DNA of 64,000 bases from a virus (Duplodnaviria; Heunggongvirae; Uroviricota; Caudoviricetes). The DNA lies in IMG/VR virus record IMGVR_UViG_3300025778_000009. One strand, given 5' to 3'. A program made the translations under genes and the position numbers. Shown in pieces: positions 1 to 29,259 of this stretch. The stretch's first letter is position 1; each line of letters opens with the position of its first letter. The notes below the pieces were generated by a model that was not told the origin of the DNA, searched no databases, and saw nothing but the letters and a program-made list of their open reading frames with translations.

Positions 1-44
1 TTCAGACGAGTCCGCCTCGTGGTGAGGCAAACAAAATTCACTCT
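1..44 (+). ncRNA. 3' part of a Y-RNA-like array unit, truncated by the window edge
   Basis: Ends TCACTCT followed by the array linker GTTGATTTT-AG; internal hairpin GCCTC-GTGGT-GAGGC (14-28). Confidence 0.55.
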
Positions 45-53
45 GTTGATTTT

Positions 54-164
54 AGGTTGTTTACAGCATATTTTTGCGCTTGTAGTGCCGGGTCGTGGGT
101 TCGAATCCCACCGGGAGCTCCTTGCTTCTGTAGCTCAGTGGGTAGAGCACGTAAAAGACAACCT
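54..164 (+). ncRNA. yrlA: YrlA-type Y RNA: circularly permuted tRNA-like module inside a closing stem
   Basis: Closing stem AGGTTGT(54-60)/ACAACCT(158-164). T arm GTGGG-TTCGAAT-CCCAC (95-111) comes before an acceptor-like stem CGGGAGC/GCTTCTG closed by TCCTT, then D arm GCTC-AGTGGGTA-GAGC (133-148). No CCA end. Ro-like gene 1.4 kb downstream. Confidence 0.8.
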
Positions 165-251
165 GTTGATTTTATTGAGAAAAAACTAACCTATTGAAAT
201 ATAACGATTTTTTTATAGAAAAAACTCAATGATTTCAAGGTCATATTTCTG

Positions 252-280
252 TTGACTTTATATCCATTCTATCCTATTAT
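252..280 (+). promoter_or_regulatory. sigma70-type early promoter
   Basis: TTGACT-N17-TATTAT. Confidence 0.65.
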
Positions 281-657
281 AATAATATAAGGAATCGATG
301 AACACTATTATTGTATTACGAGAGGTTAGCTATGAAGCTTTATAGGATCCGTTCTGGAAACCGTTGGTATGTTGGACAACGAGTCTCTGAAACCTTTGGC
401 AAGGATGAAGATGCTGGCGCCATTTTCAGGAATCGTGAAAAAGCAGAGCGTGAGATCCGTTCTCATTCCAAGAACTCTAACGGATACGATTTCACCGATC
501 CTAAGATGGCATGGCGCAAGAAGGAACATGATCGCTGGACTAACGCTGTCGTGGTTGAATATGATCTTGTGAGGATTGTTAACTAGATCGTTACAAAATT
601 TCGGTTGGCAGAATCCAAAATGGTGCTATTCTATCCTATTATAATAATATAAGGAAT
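266..657 (+). repeat. 30-bp exact direct repeat of the -10/leader region (266-295 and 628-657)
   Basis: ATTCTATCCTATTATAATAATATAAGGAAT occurs twice, each ahead of a small gene. Confidence 0.85.
332..586 (+). CDS. hypothetical early phage protein
   Basis: ORF 311..586; ATG at 332 with GAGGT RBS. Confidence 0.7.
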   Translation: MKLYRIRSGNRWYVGQRVSETFGKDEDAGAIFRNREKAEREIRSHSKNSNGYDFTDPKMAWRKKEHDRWTNAVVVEYDLVRIVN

Positions 658-669
658 GGAGATAAAGAT

Positions 670-878
670 ATGTCCGACGCCGATATAATCAACGCGAGAA
701 TCAAGCTTTTCAAAAAAAGAGTCTCTCAGCTCTGGGCAAAGCATATACTACACCAACGTTCTACCGCACTTGGCAAACCCAGTCAGTTTGTGCTCTCACA
801 GAAGCGGAGATTGATGAGGTCAAGGCTTATAGGGATGAGATCCCTGCCCTAGAGCAACTTCTCGCGAAGAAGGATTAA
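670..878 (+). CDS. hypothetical protein, probably frameshifted at the A7 tract 712-718
   Basis: GGAG RBS. The -1 frame reads LSALGKAYTTPTFYRTW...LEQLLAKKD* and ends at 878, next to the following gene. Confidence 0.5.
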
Positions 879-882
879 TGAT

Positions 883-1122
883 ATGAAGCCGTTGATATTT
901 ATTGGTGTAGTTGTTGTTGGTGTTGTGAGTCTCGCCGTTGCAGCTGGTATATATGATCAGAATCAATGGAATGATTTTTCCGCAGCTCACGATTGCAAGT
1001 TGGTTGGTCATAAGAACTCAACTGTTGGCTATGGTTTGACACCGTCTGGCAAAATGGGCACGGTAATCCTTCCTGAAGAAAATTCTTACCTTTGCGATGA
1101 TGGTGTAACATATACTCGTTAA
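883..1122 (+). CDS. small membrane-anchored hypothetical protein
   Basis: N-terminal hydrophobic helix, two Cys. Confidence 0.7.
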   Translation: MKPLIFIGVVVVGVVSLAVAAGIYDQNQWNDFSAAHDCKLVGHKNSTVGYGLTPSGKMGTVILPEENSYLCDDGVTYTR

Positions 1123-1147
1123 TTATATAGGAAATGGAGATAGGGAT

Positions 1148-1345
1148 ATGAAAAAGCAATATCGCATCTTTGTTATGGAATCAGAACGGGGATGGGGTCA
1201 GAGATATGAACAGTGGGATTACGATACGTATGAAGAAGCAAAAGCAGCCATTCATCGAATCAATTCTGATAATACTGCACCAACTGCTCCTGATTGGTAC
1301 ATGCAAGCAGAAGATCGTGTTGAGGTAGTCGAAGTTAAAGTATAA
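1148..1345 (+). CDS. hypothetical phage protein (ESERGWG motif)
   Basis: ORF with GGAG RBS. Confidence 0.7.
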   Translation: MKKQYRIFVMESERGWGQRYEQWDYDTYEEAKAAIHRINSDNTAPTAPDWYMQAEDRVEVVEVKV

Positions 1346-1353
1346 AAAGTTTT

Positions 1354-1545
1354 AGGGTCAGTTCAGCAACCAATTTTGCACGCCTGAATAGCAAAAAAAG
1401 TTGACCCTGTTGATTTTAGGATCTCTACAGCATAATCGCCGTAAGGCACTTTTTTTTGGAGAAAGCAGAGTAGATCCTGTTGATTTTAGATTCAGTTCCG
1501 CAACAAAAACAAATTTTGTATCGAAAACAAAACCAAGTTGAATCT
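1354..1545 (+). ncRNA. tandem array of three Y-RNA-like stem-closed units (1354-1408, 1418-1478, 1488-1545)
   Basis: Stems AGGGTCA/TGACCCT, AGGATCT/AGATCCT, AGATTCA/TGAATCT covary. C(A/C)GCA lies 3 nt after each 5' arm. Identical GTTGATTTT linkers. Ends 22 nt before the Ro-like gene. Confidence 0.75.
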
Positions 1546-1567
1546 GTAGTAAAAATGGAGAAGTGAA

Positions 1568-3001
1568 ATGACTACATTTGCAAACGCCGTTAAGAATCAG
1601 TCTGCACGTACTGAGAACGGTATGATGGCTCGTGCATCTACTGCTAACGCTCTTACTGATCTTTTCTTTAAGATTGGTGCAATGCGTGGCAAGAACGTAA
1701 TTCCAGATTGGACTGCTGCTCGTGTTCAAGATGCTAATATCGCTGGTCGTATTGCATTGTGGGCTCGTGACGTTCGCGGTGGTGCTGGTGAGCGTAAGAT
1801 CTTCCGTGACATCCTTTTGGATCTTGTTAATACAGATCAAGATCGTACACGTGCAATGATGAACAAGGTACCTGAGCTTGGTCGTTGGGATGACTTGCTC
1901 GTTTTTGTAGGTACTGATCTTCAAAACGAAGCGTTTGAAATGATCCGTCAAGCTCTTAATGAAGGCAATGGTCTCTGTGCTAAGTGGATGCCTCGTCAAG
2001 GTGAAGTAGCTGCAAAGCTTCGTACTCACTTTGGTTGGTCTCCTAAGTATTACCGTAAGCGTTTGGTTGAATTGACTAAGGTCGTTGAGACTCAGATGTG
2101 TGCAAAGGACTGGGATAACATTAACTTCAATCACGTTCCTTCTGTTGCTTCTGCTCGTTACAAGAAGGCTTTCTCACGTCACACTGAGAAGTATAAGGAA
2201 TGGGTTATGAAGCTTGTTTCTGATAAGCCAGAAGAACGTGCAGAGGTTAAGGTCAACGCTGGTGCAGTATATCCATACGATGTATTGAAGGGTGTGATCG
2301 GTTCTTATGGCGTAGCTTACGACAAGTCTAACTTGGGTCATATTGTTGCACAATGGGAAGCGCTTCCTAACTATGTTGGTGATGCAAACATTCTTCCTCT
2401 TGTTGACGTATCTGGTTCAATGTCTTGTAAGGCTGGTGGTATTAACTCTAAGTCTCAGACTACTTGTATGGAAGTTGCTGTATCTCTTGGTCTCTACCTT
2501 GCAGATAAGAACAAGGGTAAGTTCAAGGACACTTTCCTGACTTTCTCTGGTCGACCACAATTGCTTAACTTGCAGGGTAATATCCTTGATAAGATCAAGC
2601 AAATGGTCTCTTCTGATTGGCAAATGAATACTGACTTGGTTGCAGCCGTTCAAAAGATCTTGAATGTTGCAGTTGAGAACAATGTTCCTCAAGAAGAAAT
2701 GCCAGCAGTATTGTTAATCTTGTCTGACATGCAATTTGACCGTTGTGCACAGTTTGATGACTCTGCTATGCAAATGATTGCACGTAAGTATTCAGAATTT
2801 GGTTATACAATGCCTAACATTGTGTTCTGGAATCTGAATGCTGCAGACAATGTGCCTGCTAAGTTCAATGAACAAGGTGTGGCTCTTGTGTCTGGCTTCT
2901 CACCAGCGATTGTCAAAGGTGTTCTCGCCGCTGATCTTGATAACTTTACACCAGAAGCTATCATGCTGAAGACAATCATGGCCGAGCGCTACGATTACTA
3001 A
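1568..3001 (+). CDS. Ro60/TROVE-like protein with C-terminal vWA domain (DUF2828 type)
   Basis: RTENG, RDVRGGAGER, GRWDDL, AKWMPR; MIDAS motif DVSGS; SDMQFD; IVFWNL. Confidence 0.8.
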   Translation: MTTFANAVKNQSARTENGMMARASTANALTDLFFKIGAMRGKNVIPDWTAARVQDANIAGRIALWARDVRGGAGERKIFRDILLDLVNTDQDRTRAMMNKVPELGRWDDLLVFVGTDLQNEAFEMIRQALNEGNGLCAKWMPRQGEVAAKLRTHFGWSPKYYRKRLVELTKVVETQMCAKDWDNINFNHVPSVASARYKKAFSRHTEKYKEWVMKLVSDKPEERAEVKVNAGAVYPYDVLKGVIGSYGVAYDKSNLGHIVAQWEALPNYVGDANILPLVDVSGSMSCKAGGINSKSQTTCMEVAVSLGLYLADKNKGKFKDTFLTFSGRPQLLNLQGNILDKIKQMVSSDWQMNTDLVAAVQKILNVAVENNVPQEEMPAVLLILSDMQFDRCAQFDDSAMQMIARKYSEFGYTMPNIVFWNLNAADNVPAKFNEQGVALVSGFSPAIVKGVLAADLDNFTPEAIMLKTIMAERYDY

Positions 3002-4187: not shown

Positions 4188-4688
4188 ATGCATAGACAAC
4201 AAATGAATATCAATCAAGTAGCTGAGTTTATCAATGCTCAGTCTGCTGATACCAAGATTTACATTGGTGGTGATTCAGAACGATTTCTAATAGACAATGT
4301 CTGGCATGCTGACTATACTCTTGCTGTTGTTGTTCACTATGGTGGCAATCGTGGTTGTAAGATCTTTGGTGAAGTTGTTCGTGAAAGAGACTTTGATCAA
4401 CAAAAAGACAAACCACGTATGCGACTTATGAATGAAGTAATGAAAATTGCTGATTTGTATTTGAAGTTAGCAGAAGTGTTGGAGGATCGTCATGTTGAAG
4501 TACATCTTGACATTAATCCAGATGAGCATCACGGTAGTTCTTGCGTTATCAATGAAGCAACAGGATATATTCGTGGAATGTGTAATGTCGTGCCTTTGGT
4601 TAAGCCAAACGCTTTTGCTGCATCTTACTGCGCTGACCGATTGAAGGAAATTTTATATAATCAAGAAAATACAAAAAAAGCTAGTTAA
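4188..4688 (+). CDS. RNase H-like YkuK family protein
   Basis: YIGGDS, RLMNEV, VEVHLDIN, KPNAFAASYCAD. Confidence 0.75.
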   Translation: MHRQQMNINQVAEFINAQSADTKIYIGGDSERFLIDNVWHADYTLAVVVHYGGNRGCKIFGEVVRERDFDQQKDKPRMRLMNEVMKIADLYLKLAEVLEDRHVEVHLDINPDEHHGSSCVINEATGYIRGMCNVVPLVKPNAFAASYCADRLKEILYNQENTKKAS

Positions 4689-5833: not shown

Positions 5834-6298
5834 ATGCAAATAGTAAAAGTAACAGGTTTTAAAAAACATTACGCATTTACCTATCTTATGAAGATAGAAC
5901 ATGCATGCTTTAACGGTGATTATATTACAAAAAAAGATTTTAAAACCAATTACGAAAGAACTTTTTTTCTTTTAGACATTGATCAAAATATTATTGGTTA
6001 CTATATGTGGTATCCTGAAAATGGTTATGCCTATCTTTACAGCCTTGCTATAGATAAATATTATCAAGGTAATGGTTATTCAAAGCTAATGCTAGATCAT
6101 TTTCTAGCCAATAGTGGGCATAATATACATTGCTTGCACGTAAAAGATATTAACGATAAAGCTAGACAACTTTATAAAAATTATGGGTTTATAGAATCTA
6201 CAGTAGTAAATAATTTTTATGAAGATGGTGCTCCTGCAATAACAATGTACAAAAAGATAAATGAAACACAAAATAGTCCACTTGTTTGGAAACATTGA
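5834..6298 (+). CDS. GNAT N-acetyltransferase (RimI-like)
   Basis: LAIDKYYQGNGYSK, LHV...N.KARQLYKNYGF, FYEDG..A. Confidence 0.8.
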   Translation: MQIVKVTGFKKHYAFTYLMKIEHACFNGDYITKKDFKTNYERTFFLLDIDQNIIGYYMWYPENGYAYLYSLAIDKYYQGNGYSKLMLDHFLANSGHNIHCLHVKDINDKARQLYKNYGFIESTVVNNFYEDGAPAITMYKKINETQNSPLVWKH

Positions 6299-6947
6299 TG
6301 ACTATGATCTACAAACATATCGATTAGATCTTGATCCAGAAGACACCAAAGAGAGTGAGATTCTAGATAATGGTTGGTATGTTTTTAATGGTCGATGGAT
6401 TGCTAATCGTCTTGTAAGGCTTGATCTTTCCAAATATACAAAAGAACCTAAACAGATTAAAGGCTATGAATTTGTCTTTAAAGAACGTTTAGATGATCAT
6501 TCAGAAGTTGATAGGGTATTTCAAACCTTTATCAAGCTAAGAGGCCTCAGTCCAATTTACAGTGTAACTTGTGATCCTGAGAGAACTTCTTGGCTTTTAG
6601 TTTATAAAAATAACATTCTAGTTGCATTCACAAAGTTTACAAACTATGAAGGCGCATTAGAAAGTCAATTCACTGCCTGGGATTATTCAGAACCAAAAAT
6701 ATCTCTTGGTGTAAAGATAGTTGATTATGAAGTTATGCATGCCAGAAAAAAAGGTTATCCATTTCTTTATATTGGGCCAGGTTATGGGGCAATAGCAGCT
6801 TATAAATCTAGATTTCAAGGCTTTGAATGGTGGACTGGCTCAGAATGGTCTAAGGATATCGATAAATATGTTGAAGCTTGTAACAGAGATTCTACTATTA
6901 AGACTCTCGATGATTTAAATAGATTGTTTAACGACCCAAATGCATAA
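6261..6947 (+). CDS. aminoacyl-tRNA-protein transferase-like (ATE1/Bpt C-terminal type)
   Basis: WDYSEPKISLG...EVMHARKKGYPFLYIG.GY...AYKSRF resembles the ATE_C pattern SLG...YLYLGY..YKxxF. Confidence 0.65.
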   Translation: MKHKIVHLFGNIDDYDLQTYRLDLDPEDTKESEILDNGWYVFNGRWIANRLVRLDLSKYTKEPKQIKGYEFVFKERLDDHSEVDRVFQTFIKLRGLSPIYSVTCDPERTSWLLVYKNNILVAFTKFTNYEGALESQFTAWDYSEPKISLGVKIVDYEVMHARKKGYPFLYIGPGYGAIAAYKSRFQGFEWWTGSEWSKDIDKYVEACNRDSTIKTLDDLNRLFNDPNA

Positions 6948-7588: not shown

Positions 7589-7775
7589 TTTCATGATCAT
7601 CTCCTAGTTGAAAGATCATAATAAATTCAATCATTCAATCAGTAATATAAACATGAAATAATGTATAAGACGATTTGAGTACTCGCGTGCCAATTCGTTG
7701 AACTCAAGCCCGAAAGGTGGAAAAAGACTTGATCTACTATCCTCGTCATGCCACCTTAACATTATACTTTTTATT

Positions 7776-18696: not shown

Positions 18697-18994
18697 TATG
18701 ATCCGCGGATGGTTCATAGGTGATTTTGAACCATCCGTGTTTAAGACTAAAGATTTTGAAGTTGGCGTTCTTACTCATAAAAAAGGTGAAGAATGGCCAA
18801 AACATTATCATAAGATTGCTACAGAATATACCGTTTTGCTTTCTGGTTCAATGACCATTTGTGGTGAATTAATTGAAGCTGGAACTATTTTTATTTTAGA
18901 ACCGGGTGAAGTTGCAGATCCAGTCTTTCATGAAGACTGTACAGTGATTGTAGTAAAAACCCCTAGCGTGATTGGAGATAAGTATGTCGTTTGA
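18674..18994 (+). CDS. cupin (RmlC-like) protein
   Basis: RGWFIGDF, HYH...E, EPGE. Confidence 0.75.
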   Translation: MLKEKLSNMIRGWFIGDFEPSVFKTKDFEVGVLTHKKGEEWPKHYHKIATEYTVLLSGSMTICGELIEAGTIFILEPGEVADPVFHEDCTVIVVKTPSVIGDKYVV

Positions 18995-20183
18995 TGCTTT
19001 TCGTGATAAATCTTCTTTAGATCCTCAAGAATACGTATTTGTAAAATATGAATTAGATAGCACTGAAAGTGTTAAGAAGGCAGCTTGGGATCTAGCTATC
19101 GGTCAGAGTGTTGGTAATCCAAATGTTCGTAATGATTGGGAAACAGATGAGCTGTTTGAAAAACATAGTTGCTTGATTACTATGGTAGATGAAGAAAATA
19201 AATTAGCTGAAATAGCTTTTCCAGTTGAGAATACTAATTGGAAAGAAGATGGTATCTCTCACTTACTTTGTCAGATTATGGGTGGTCAAACAGATATTGA
19301 TCATATTATTAAGAGTCGTGTAATTGATATTGAAATCCCTGAATGTGTTAAAGCTTGGTTTAGGGAACCACGATTTGGATTTAAAGGTTATCGTGAGTAT
19401 TTAAACCAATATGATAAACCTTTATTGGGTGGTATTGTAAAACCAAAGACAGGTATTAGCCCGCAAACTCTTCTTGAGATGGTTAAGCAAATGGTCGAGG
19501 GTGGTGTTGATTTTATTAAAGAAGATGAAATTCTTTCCAATCCCAACTTCTGCCCTCTTTGGCAACGTGTTCCATTGATTGCTGATTATCTAGCTAATTG
19601 TGGTCGAAAGGTTGCTTATCATTTTTGTATTAATAGCGATCCTCTATATGTTCTTGAAAGAGCCAAATATGTTGCTAAGCACAGCACTGAAAATTTAACA
19701 TTAGGGGTTCATATTAATGTTTGGTCTGGACTTGGTGTTTACAATTCTATTCGTAAATTAAATTTGCCTTTATTCATTCATTATCAAAAGAGTGGTGAAA
19801 AGACATTTACACATCCAAAGAATCCATTTGGTATTTCATGGCCTGTACTTTGTGAATTAGCAGGATTGTCTGGTGTAGATACTATTCATGCAGGTATGAT
19901 CGGGGGGTATTCTTCTGATGATCCAGTAATGATGGAACAAGCTATTGCAAATCTTAATAAGTATGGGACGGTCCCATCATTATCATGTGGAATGCATCCT
20001 GGTCTTGTTAATCATGTAACTGAATTATTTGGTTCAGTTGATTATATGGCAAGTGTCGGTGGTGCTATTCATGGTCATCCAAACGGCACACTAGCAGGTG
20101 CAACGGCTATGCGTCAGGCTATTGATAAGACTTATGGGCCTGAATATGATGTAGCTATTGCTAAATGGGGTTTAGTAAATTGA
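18984..20183 (+). CDS. RuBisCO-like protein (form IV)
   Basis: IVKPKTG, GGVDFIKEDE, HAG, SCGMHP, GGAIHGHP; lacks equivalents of H294 and loop-6 K334. Confidence 0.88.
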   Translation: MSFDAFRDKSSLDPQEYVFVKYELDSTESVKKAAWDLAIGQSVGNPNVRNDWETDELFEKHSCLITMVDEENKLAEIAFPVENTNWKEDGISHLLCQIMGGQTDIDHIIKSRVIDIEIPECVKAWFREPRFGFKGYREYLNQYDKPLLGGIVKPKTGISPQTLLEMVKQMVEGGVDFIKEDEILSNPNFCPLWQRVPLIADYLANCGRKVAYHFCINSDPLYVLERAKYVAKHSTENLTLGVHINVWSGLGVYNSIRKLNLPLFIHYQKSGEKTFTHPKNPFGISWPVLCELAGLSGVDTIHAGMIGGYSSDDPVMMEQAIANLNKYGTVPSLSCGMHPGLVNHVTELFGSVDYMASVGGAIHGHPNGTLAGATAMRQAIDKTYGPEYDVAIAKWGLVN

Positions 20184-25219: not shown

Positions 25220-25373
25220 AACACATAATTATTCAGTTGATGCTTTAAAAAAAGCTGCATTCGTTGACGAGCTTAATAATGTTCTTATTCATGCGGAAAA
25301 AACAGTTGCAAAAGATATCATAGTAGAATATCTTAATATAAGAGTTAATGAGATTAATAAAAGGTACAAATAG
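25200..25373 (+). CDS. hypothetical protein
   Basis: ORF 25131..25373; probable ATG at 25200. Confidence 0.5.
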   Translation: MRLSGTETHNYSVDALKKAAFVDELNNVLIHAEKTVAKDIIVEYLNIRVNEINKRYK

Positions 25374-25378
25374 GTTAT

Positions 25379-25470
25379 GGGCGTGGGTGTTGGTACACGA
25401 GAGGAGCTTATATCTCCTTTAGCGGCAGATTACCGTTCTAGACTTGGTTCGAATCCGAGCGCGCCTACCA
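25379..25470 (+). tRNA. atypical tRNA, anticodon TAT (Ile), long variable arm and reduced D arm
   Basis: Acceptor GGGCGTG/CGCGCCT-ACCA; AGGAG-CTTATAT-CTCCT; variable arm GCGG..CCGT; TTCGAAT. Confidence 0.75.
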
Positions 25471-25487
25471 ATTTCTAGGAGACTAAA

Positions 25488-25760
25488 ATGCCAACCGTTA
25501 CGACCGAAGTTGATTTTGATTTAGAAACAATCGATGACTATGACCTCATAGATGAGCTAGAGAGACGAGGTTATGAGATAATCGAAAACGGTAGAGAAGA
25601 CGACGATCTCATAGATATTTTAACTGATCGTGGATATTCAGTCATTGTTAGAGATTATTTAGAAGAACTCTATAGTACCTACTTGACAATGTCTCCTGAG
25701 TTTTTTCAGAAAGAATTGAAGAAATTATTCCGAGAGAAGTTAGACGTAAATATATACTAA
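25488..25760 (+). CDS. acidic hypothetical protein with an internal repeat
   Basis: DLIDEL.RRGY / DLIDIL..RGY; AGGAG RBS. Confidence 0.7.
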   Translation: MPTVTTEVDFDLETIDDYDLIDELERRGYEIIENGREDDDLIDILTDRGYSVIVRDYLEELYSTYLTMSPEFFQKELKKLFREKLDVNIY

Positions 25761-29194: not shown

Positions 29195-29259
29195 TCAATG
29201 ATTTCAACGGTATATTTTTTAAAAATACCGTTGATTTTATTAGGAATCCATGCTATATT
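29195..29259 (+). promoter_or_regulatory. early promoter with upstream TCAATGATTTCAA motif and an inverted repeat
   Basis: TCAATGATTTCAA (also at 226-238); TCAACGGTAT/ATACCGTTGA; TTGATT-N17-TATATT. Confidence 0.55.

Follow-up and report, generated by a model that had tools for sequence, protein, structure and literature searches.

What are the short, stem-forming units that stand in two arrays ahead of a gene for a Ro60-like (DUF2828) protein in a large freshwater phage (Caudoviricetes; IMG/VR record IMGVR_UViG_3300025778_000009), and do they serve that protein? Ro60 and its Y RNAs form a classic yet poorly understood RNA-surveillance particle. Here, we analysed 64 kb of phage DNA (hereafter, the window), in which all units read in the + direction, together with related loci from other phages and from bacteria. 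We consider it likely that the units are genes for small non-coding, Y-RNA-like partner RNAs of the neighbouring Ro60-like protein, to which they would bind through a shared handle, and that protein and RNAs make up a second kind of Ro60/Y-RNA particle.

Handle units in the window

Four complete units were found (54–164, 1354–1408, 1418–1478 and 1488–1545), together with a fifth (1–44) that is cut by the window edge. Each complete unit consists of a 7-nt arm starting with AG, 3 nt, C(A/C)GCA, a variable interior and a perfect reverse-complement arm ending in CT, followed by GT(T/A)G. The coordinates and arms of all units had been given in an earlier note on this DNA and are indeed present: a script encoding the grammar ([7-nt arm]-N3-C[AC]GCA-N(15-160)-[perfect reverse complement]) returned the four complete units, and its 21 other matches on both strands (128 kb) lacked the shared AG...CT-GT ends. 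The 7-bp stem was closed in the minimum-free-energy folds (RNAfold) of all four. The earlier note had also proposed a covariance model as a check. This model (R1), trained on 92 short units of which three come from the window, matched only 1485–1549, 1415–1482, 1351–1412 and 51–168 when run on both strands of the whole window (E 5e-10 to 3e-4), i.e. exactly the four complete units in 64 kb.

Units are joined head to tail, as first described, by the linker GTTGATTTT, which occurs seven times in the window against 1.4 expected copies (0/100 shuffles reach seven); four of these copies directly follow units, at 45, 165, 1409 and 1479. The boundary between unit and linker had to be redrawn. The G-U(U) after the 3′ arm, previously counted as linker, is retained in last units that have no neighbour and is therefore assigned to the unit. 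Positions 45–53 thus hold the 3′ tail and linker, the leading GU(U) of GTTGATTTT belonging to the unit consensus, and the copy at 165–173 is the 3′ tail behind the last unit of the first array.

The cut unit 1–44 is identical at 42/44 bases to the 3′ end of a 108-nt, YrlA-like unit aligned from two relatives (L005 and L006). A 5′ arm AGAGTGA had been predicted for it, and these relatives, through which alone the missing part can be seen, carry this arm followed by GTT-CAGCAA. Unit 54–164 (stem AGGTTGT/ACAACCT, then TTA-CAGCA; R1 29.2 bits) has a YrlA-like tRNA-mimic cargo, in which the fold and the Rfam YrlA match place a T arm, a loop-closed acceptor stem and a D arm in that order. The permuted tRNA previously noted among the interiors corresponds to this YrlA topology, at an Rfam YrlA score of 33.6 bits that is below the gathering score of 69 bits.

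The second array comprises three short handle RNAs, all recovered by the grammar script, the fold and R1. In the first, 1354–1408 (stem AGGGTCA/TGACCCT, GTT-CAGCAA; R1 47.5 bits), the fold confirms the terminal stem; from the sequence, the cargo can be read as a hairpin of 4 bp (TTGC/GCAA) around a loop of 11 nt, whereas RNAfold predicts another interior. The second, 1418–1478 (stem AGGATCT/AGATCCT, CTA-CAGCAT; R1 48.1 bits), carries the hairpin GCC-GUAA-GGC. The third, 1488–1545 (stem AGATTCA/TGAATCT, GTT-CCGCAA; R1 54.3 bits), also has a hairpin cargo, readable with an anticodon-like 7-nt loop, AUCGAAA, where the fold draws a loop of 5 nt. A gap of 22 nt separates this last unit from the ATG at 1568.

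The neighbouring protein is predicted to have the Ro60 fold

The gene that starts at this ATG (1568–3001, + strand) encodes a protein of 477 amino acids that matches Pfam DUF2828 and DUF7788 and PHROG 850 (‘RNA-binding protein’). An AlphaFold model based on 71 diverse homologs was of high quality (predicted local distance difference test, pLDDT, 91; predicted template modelling score, pTM, 0.90), and the metal-site residues of the von Willebrand factor A (vWA) domain, D280, S282 and S284, were invariant among the 71 homolog sequences. The 11 best Foldseek matches in the PDB were all Ro60 or TROVE structures, headed by Ro60 of the Thermus phage phiLo (E 4.7e-9). VIA-align ranked Xenopus Ro60 first (Z 21.2, root-mean-square deviation 4.3 Å, 408 residues), followed by human Ro60, Thermus phage Ro60 and Deinococcus Rsr; the ten best matches were all Ro60, Rsr or TROVE proteins (Z 13–21, 380–414 residues), and those further down (Z ≤10) covered the vWA domain alone. 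We therefore predict with high confidence a full Ro60 fold, comprising a closed ring of helical repeats and a C-terminal vWA domain with its metal-site motif. The Ro-like fold had been claimed beforehand, with a comparison to Ro60/Rsr suggested as its test, and the modelled ring-plus-vWA architecture bears it out. Given this predicted fold, and given that the top structural matches are Ro60 and TROVE proteins only, the protein is surely related to Ro60 and may be expected to work like it.

Pfam TROVE (PF05731) did not match the protein: DUF7788, DUF2828 and a weak VWA_2 were all that hmmscan listed at E ≤10. Nothing was found when the protein sequence was searched directly against the PDB, and a profile of the 71 homologs reached TROVE chains there only at E 0.015. 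Judged by sequence, the DUF2828/DUF7788 protein belongs to a family separate from TROVE. The family is large (6088 clusters at 50% identity, E ≤0.001) and is represented in 711 phage records, including Felix-O1-type, T4-type (KVP40, Cronobacter S13), Listeria P100-type, Staphylococcus, Enterococcus, Bacillus and Campylobacter phages and cluster L mycobacteriophages. The homolog search also found eukaryotic proteins with DUF2828 and DUF7788, in fungi and dinoflagellates. The DUF2828 system suggests that Ro60 has a second and much more widespread branch.

The homolog of Listeria phage CKA15, CKA15_055, was detected by mass spectrometry in purified virions (20 peptides, 57% coverage; PMC12282133), and the Ro60-like protein may be packaged and delivered together with the phage DNA. 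In Pectobacterium phage CBB the homolog is annotated as a ‘structural protein’.

Handle units accompany DUF2828 genes in other phages and in bacteria

We then examined 83 related phage loci (80 IMG/VR contigs at 61–83% identity and three phage records). The unit grammar was present in ~77 of them, in arrays of up to nine units. On the gene's strand, 163 perfect-stem matches fell within 500 nt upstream of the gene, compared to ~2–5 per 250-nt bin elsewhere, and in most loci of the freshwater clade the last unit ended 15–23 nt before the ATG. The consensus of 234 distinct units reads UUUU-AGGWUNN-NUW-CAGCAA-...A-rich...-NNAWCCU-GUUR.

The association extends to bacteria. Among 80 bacterial or metagenome-assembled genome (MAG) loci, none of which was used in building R1, the model gave 54 matches, all 54 on the strand of the gene and most less than 1 kb from it. 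In the first 500 nt upstream of these genes, the grammar script found 98 matches on the + strand versus 3 on the − strand. Under the strict grammar, 51/80 loci had units, which in some MAG loci lay downstream of the gene. Two whole genomes of 9.2 and 8.8 Mb together yielded seven R1 matches, six of them just upstream of DUF2828 genes. Among 120 Clostridia genomes the gene occurred in four, and all four had adjacent arrays of 3–4 units. R1 had no match in 117 Clostridia genomes lacking the gene. This model is insensitive to the ‘AAG...’ arm type of Firmicutes and misses 3/4 of the gene-bearing genomes whose arrays the grammar script detects. In an Oscillospiraceae genome (G004:C1:87870-88974; L171 1935–2971), two strong handle-RNA matches were seen 44 kb from the DUF2828 gene, which could represent a second locus or a distal array.

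Units were likewise found in distant phages whose proteins share only ~30–45% identity. Listeria phage LP-048 (L085) has three units upstream of the gene, ahead of which a sigma-70-like sequence (TTGACA-17 nt-TATCAT) can be read by eye. In mycobacteriophage Lumos three units follow the gene, the middle one being a weak Rfam YrlA match, and the Felix-O1-type phage BPS17W1 has four, also downstream. Two units stand beside the gene in Campylobacter phage PC14 and one in Cronobacter phage S13. In whole phage genomes, R1 matches occurred only beside the gene or, in KVP40, S13 and BUCT-ZZ01, 6–10 kb away on the same strand, where they were located in tRNA clusters. The genomes of T4, T5 and phiKZ contained neither a DUF2828 gene nor an R1 match. 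A conserved scaffold with variable cargo, co-occurring with DUF2828, was the central proposal of the earlier note, and this search of the flanks, with same-strand units in distant phages and bacteria, supports it.

The cargo is drawn from tRNA parts

The interiors, previously taken to be unrelated to one another, fall into classes of tRNA parts that recur from unit to unit. Among 104 distinct short units (48–70 nt), 76 had a 7-nt loop on a stem of 4 bp or more. The logo of this loop is C32 (56%), U33 (71%), N N N, A37 (85%) and A38 (76%), which is the signature of an anticodon loop. U33 together with a purine at 37 was present in 51/76 short units, against 3.2/23 in shuffled interiors, and the ‘anticodons’ varied (UGA, UGU, CAU, GCA, UGG and others). 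In units of 71–100 nt a T arm was frequent, and several of them run through a hairpin, an anticodon arm, 4–5 nt and a T arm, equivalent to a tRNA body with the handle in place of the acceptor stem. Units of 101–135 nt were YrlA-like, with weak matches to Rfam YrlA. Within the window, the YrlA-type tRNA-like domain is present in 54–164 and, via relatives, in 1–44, and is absent from the three short units.

A further form was found in tRNA-shaped RNAs of 113–121 nt in Cronobacter phage S13 (L002 4895–5138) and in BUCT-ZZ01 (L001 4581–4827), which have normal acceptor, D and T arms. The S13 copies are annotated as tRNA-Ser and tRNA-OTHER, whilst the two of BUCT-ZZ01 were flagged by the Rfam tRNA model alone. 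In place of an anticodon arm they have [A-rich]-[arm ending CU]-GNNA-[arm starting AG]-AUU-C(A/U)GCA. This insert is the handle again, in circularly permuted form and with a tetraloop closing it, within an RNA whose acceptor ends are free; these RNAs are probably not decoding tRNAs. The permuted form shows the handle to be a module in its own right, with no requirement for free ends, as would be expected of a site bound by protein more than of a signal for processing. Permuted handles would also explain the odd ‘tRNA-OTHER’ and 113–121-nt ‘tRNA’ annotations in phage genomes.

Comparison with known Ro60 systems and phage tRNAs

Phage-encoded Ro60 with adjacent Y-like RNAs is already published for TROVE-family proteins. 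YrlA RNAs adjoin TROVE genes in 22 phages, and in Deinococcus a Y RNA tethers PNPase to Rsr (Chen et al. 2014, PMC4201824). Ro60 of Thermus phage phiLo binds two upstream Y-like RNAs, Yrl1 and Yrl2, in vitro, and its complex with host PNPase has been reported in vitro (PMC12135203; PDB 9KOP, 9L5Y). Like Rsr with YrlA/YrlB (RF02553), the system described here combines a (predicted) Ro60-fold ring protein with small RNAs that are adjacent on the same strand, whose 5′ and 3′ ends pair, and which have a conserved single-stranded motif by the stem and a tRNA-like module; several RNAs per gene are possible in both, and the window units 54–164 and 1–44 share the YrlA topology. The two systems also differ. 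The window protein belongs to Pfam DUF2828/DUF7788 and not TROVE. The Rsr site GNCGAAN0-1G is absent near the 5′ end of the RNAs, where the 234-unit consensus has N-U-W-CAGCAA after the 3-nt spacer. Most handle units measure 50–66 nt and carry an anticodon-like hairpin only, their arrays reach nine units, and circularly permuted forms exist. No unit attains the gathering score of Rfam YrlA, relatives' units scoring 29–46 bits. The phiLo system resembles that of the window in being encoded by a phage and in having its Y-like RNAs immediately ahead of the gene; its protein is of the TROVE family, its two RNAs are defined by a CGAA motif, and no series of tRNA-part cargoes has been described for it.

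Some phage tRNAs evade or offset host anticodon nucleases. The units resemble such tRNAs in being phage RNAs that present anticodon loops in a setting of tRNA-targeting host defences. Unlike them, most units lack an acceptor end and cannot be charged, and are joined instead to a putative protein-binding handle.

The CAGCAA handle, its tie to DUF2828, the short anticodon-displaying arrays and the permuted forms were not described by any paper in the literature searched, nor by any Rfam family. This agrees with the statement in the earlier note that no description of such arrays was known, and the handle RNAs could fill a gap in Rfam with a family of their own. For Listeria phage CKA15, a 2025 paper goes no further than to speculate that abundant non-coding RNAs encoded close to the gene could be Y RNAs; the most abundant RNA of this phage (26,236–26,727 of OR088597) makes up as much as 34% of all transcripts (PMC12282133). 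We considered whether this RNA is the unit array and rejected the idea, as it maps to a separate ~500-nt noncoding stretch ~1 kb further upstream (L085 ~2486–2977; the three units correspond to ~25,287–25,550). Because the abundant RNA maps elsewhere, that study gives no read-out of the units. The region in question (L085 ~2424–3000) consists of a sigma-70-like sequence, read by eye, followed by the ~500-nt noncoding stretch, which matched nothing in Rfam and is separate from the three handle units.

Proposed function and alternative explanations

The constant handle is made up of a terminal stem of 7 bp (usually A-G...C-U), a 3-nt spacer containing U and the single-stranded CAGCAA on the 5′ side, with an A-rich stretch and the 3′ G-U on the other. 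We propose that it docks on the Ro60-like ring in the way that the terminal stem and conserved motif of Y RNAs dock on Ro60. The cargo would display a piece of tRNA, be it an anticodon stem-loop, a YrlA-like body of T arm, acceptor and D arm, or an anticodon arm combined with a T arm, and could thereby recruit tRNA-recognising enzymes to the protein or act as a decoy for them, with nucleases, repair ligases and modification enzymes as candidates. Docking and cargo presentation are modelled on Rsr-YrlA, Deinococcus Rsr-Y RNA-PNPase and Thermus phage Ro60, by analogy with which this arrangement is the most likely one. As the cargoes mimic anticodon loops and tRNA bodies, a role as decoy or adaptor for enzymes that cut or repair tRNA suggests itself, and the most likely purpose is the handling of tRNA damage or of anticodon nucleases during infection. 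In the window, the RNAs would be parts of longer transcripts, with the second array transcribed together with the operon and units released through cuts in the A/U-rich linker. The second array directly follows the stop codon of the open reading frame (ORF) 1148–1345, with no promoter-like site just upstream of it.

One structural refinement was tried and discarded. The Rfam YrlA alignment hinted that CAGCA pairs with UGUUG after the 3′ arm. As a conserved helix this was rejected: it would cross the 7-bp stem, the tails of CCGCA units have not changed to compensate, and 36% of units have A as the fourth base of the tail, opposite an invariant C.

Several observations weigh against our proposal. 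Under the strict grammar, ~29/80 of the bacterial and MAG loci have no unit. The 100% pairing and high covariation score are partly circular, pairing having been a criterion by which units were selected. The handle is unlike the Rsr site GNCGAA, and the protein is unmatched by Pfam TROVE; homology of the binding mode is therefore an assumption. Contigs of four lake metatranscriptomes cover relatives' ORFs (ORF 311–586, part of 738–890 and parts of the DUF2828 gene, at 90–99% identity) and none covers the arrays, although with only 5–7% of words present this comparison is uninformative. Finally, in this phage group the last unit lies ~20 nt before the start codon, a position that would also suit control of translation.

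This last point underlies a first rival explanation, that the units are cis-acting operators in the mRNA leader, through which the Ro60-like protein or another factor controls the translation or stability of its own message, with no free small RNAs. The second array is set between an upstream stop codon (1345) and the gene's Shine-Dalgarno sequence, and no promoter-like site immediately precedes it; both this setting and the 15–23-nt distance to the ATG in most freshwater-clade loci are what such operators would show. A cis-acting leader should always stand in the 5′ untranslated region of the gene it regulates, however, and in several phages the units are downstream or kilobases away. In Lumos, BPS17W1 and S13, as in some MAG loci, they follow the gene, and in KVP40, S13 and BUCT-ZZ01 they lie 7–10 kb from it. 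In the window itself, the first array is 1.4 kb upstream, separated from the gene by four ORFs and two promoter-like sites. A plain operator, moreover, has no need of elaborate tRNA-mimic cargoes or of a handle set within tRNA-shaped RNAs. We regard this explanation as unlikely. The RNAs look trans-acting, since units occur downstream, 7–10 kb away in tRNA clusters or behind a sigma-70-like sequence, whilst some autoregulation is possible in this clade because of the ~20 nt between last unit and start codon.

Alternatively, the handle could be read by a factor other than DUF2828, for instance an RNase of host or phage, or a factor that processes or modifies tRNA, and the proximity of gene and units would then reflect shared tRNA regions. 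Units are often found among tRNA genes, the A/U-rich linker may be likened to RNase E sites, and a look-alike RNA of Dictyostelium was reported to bind an RNA-recognition motif (RRM) protein directly (PMC7919456). Yet the tRNA-rich phages T4 and T5, which lack the gene, also lack the RNAs; in multi-megabase bacterial genomes the matches lie at the DUF2828 gene and not at tRNA genes generally; and in Clostridia arrays accompany the gene in 4/4 genomes, with an R1 match in 0/117 others. This second alternative thus seems quite improbable.

That the units are repeats without RNA function (mobile-element remnants, degenerate tRNA genes or terminator-like palindromes), as their repetition, stems and tRNA-like pieces might suggest, is very unlikely, given that the arms differ among copies yet always pair, CAGCAA keeps a fixed spacing across phyla at ~30% protein identity, every R1 match in the bacterial and MAG loci is on the gene's strand, and no T-runs follow the stems.

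If the units are indeed Y-RNA-like partners of the DUF2828 protein, these RNAs are recognisable from their letters and modular, with one handle and interchangeable tRNA parts, and so would allow the role of a Ro-like protein in infection to be tested directly in tractable phages.

Likeness to Dictyostelium Class I RNAs

In Rfam, unit 1488–1545 was matched best by the Dictyostelium Class I RNA family (Dicty_Class_I_RNA, RF01414), at 21 bits versus a cut-off of 41.5. On five further loci this model gave one more match, of 23.9 bits, which fell exactly on a unit, so that short units score 21–24 bits in all. Class I RNAs are ~60 nt long, with a covarying 6-bp stem, and start with AAG and end with CUGU (Kjellin et al. 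2021, PMC7919456); curated D. discoideum sequences follow the pattern (A)GUUGAC-CUUA-CAGCAA-variable-A-rich-GUCAAC-UG. The short units share with them a length of ~60 nt, a covarying terminal stem of 6–7 bp, the (A)AG start and CUGU end, UUACAGCAA after the 5′ arm, an A-rich run before the 3′ arm and a variable interior. In contrast to the handle units, Class I RNAs have a spacer of 4 nt rather than 3, are encoded by eukaryotic genes each with its own promoter, and have an RRM protein as their reported direct binder.

One preprint names DDB_G0281243, of unstated function, as a Class I pull-down partner; in the same preprint, only the RRM protein among four pull-down partners was expressed in all four species examined. 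Our homolog search for DUF2828 returned fungal and dinoflagellate proteins and no amoebozoan one. That handle RNAs and Class I RNAs form one RNA family serving DUF2828 Ro60-like proteins from phages to eukaryotes is, in our view, a speculative and rather improbable idea. Were it true, the abundant Class I RNAs would be the ‘Y RNAs’ of a DUF2828-type protein, for which DDB_G0281243 would be a candidate, and the kinship would offer a lead on RNAs whose function has puzzled since 2004.

Neighbouring genes and other observations in the window

A recurrent neighbour of the Ro60-like gene is a gene for a PF04308 RNase H-like protein (phrog_11311), found in the window at 4188–4688 on the + strand by Pfam and PHROG match. 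A PF04308 homolog occurs within 4 kb of the Ro60-like gene in 24/80 related IMG/VR loci and also in KVP40, where it is KVP40.0299, directly downstream of the gene, and in BUCT-ZZ01. Among the matches listed, including those of KVP40 and BUCT-ZZ01, 26/26 are on the strand of the Ro60-like gene. The PF04308 protein may be an effector partner of the Ro60-like protein. In Listeria phage LP-048 a gene for RtcB ligase lies 1.3 kb downstream of the Ro60-like gene.

Other features of the window are of separate interest. At 7663–7771 (− strand), in the phage tRNA region, the full-length Rfam model of the Rhizobiales small RNA Atu_At1 matches with 56.5 bits, against a gathering score of 60. Also among tRNA genes, at 5834–6947 (+ strand), there is a GNAT acetyltransferase and, overlapping it, an ORF that weakly resembles the C-terminal domain of arginine-tRNA-protein transferase (below the Pfam cut-off). 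An ORF resembling the RuBisCO large chain (18972–20183, + strand; PF00016, E 1.4e-42) stands amid genes for sugar-nucleotide enzymes, methyltransferases and glycosyltransferases, and its product is probably a RuBisCO-like protein for some other chemistry. Lastly, TCTATCCTATTATAATAATATAAGGAAT is repeated at 275–297 and 634–656 ahead of small ORFs, with a look-alike near 29250, and is probably a consensus of phage promoter and ribosome site.

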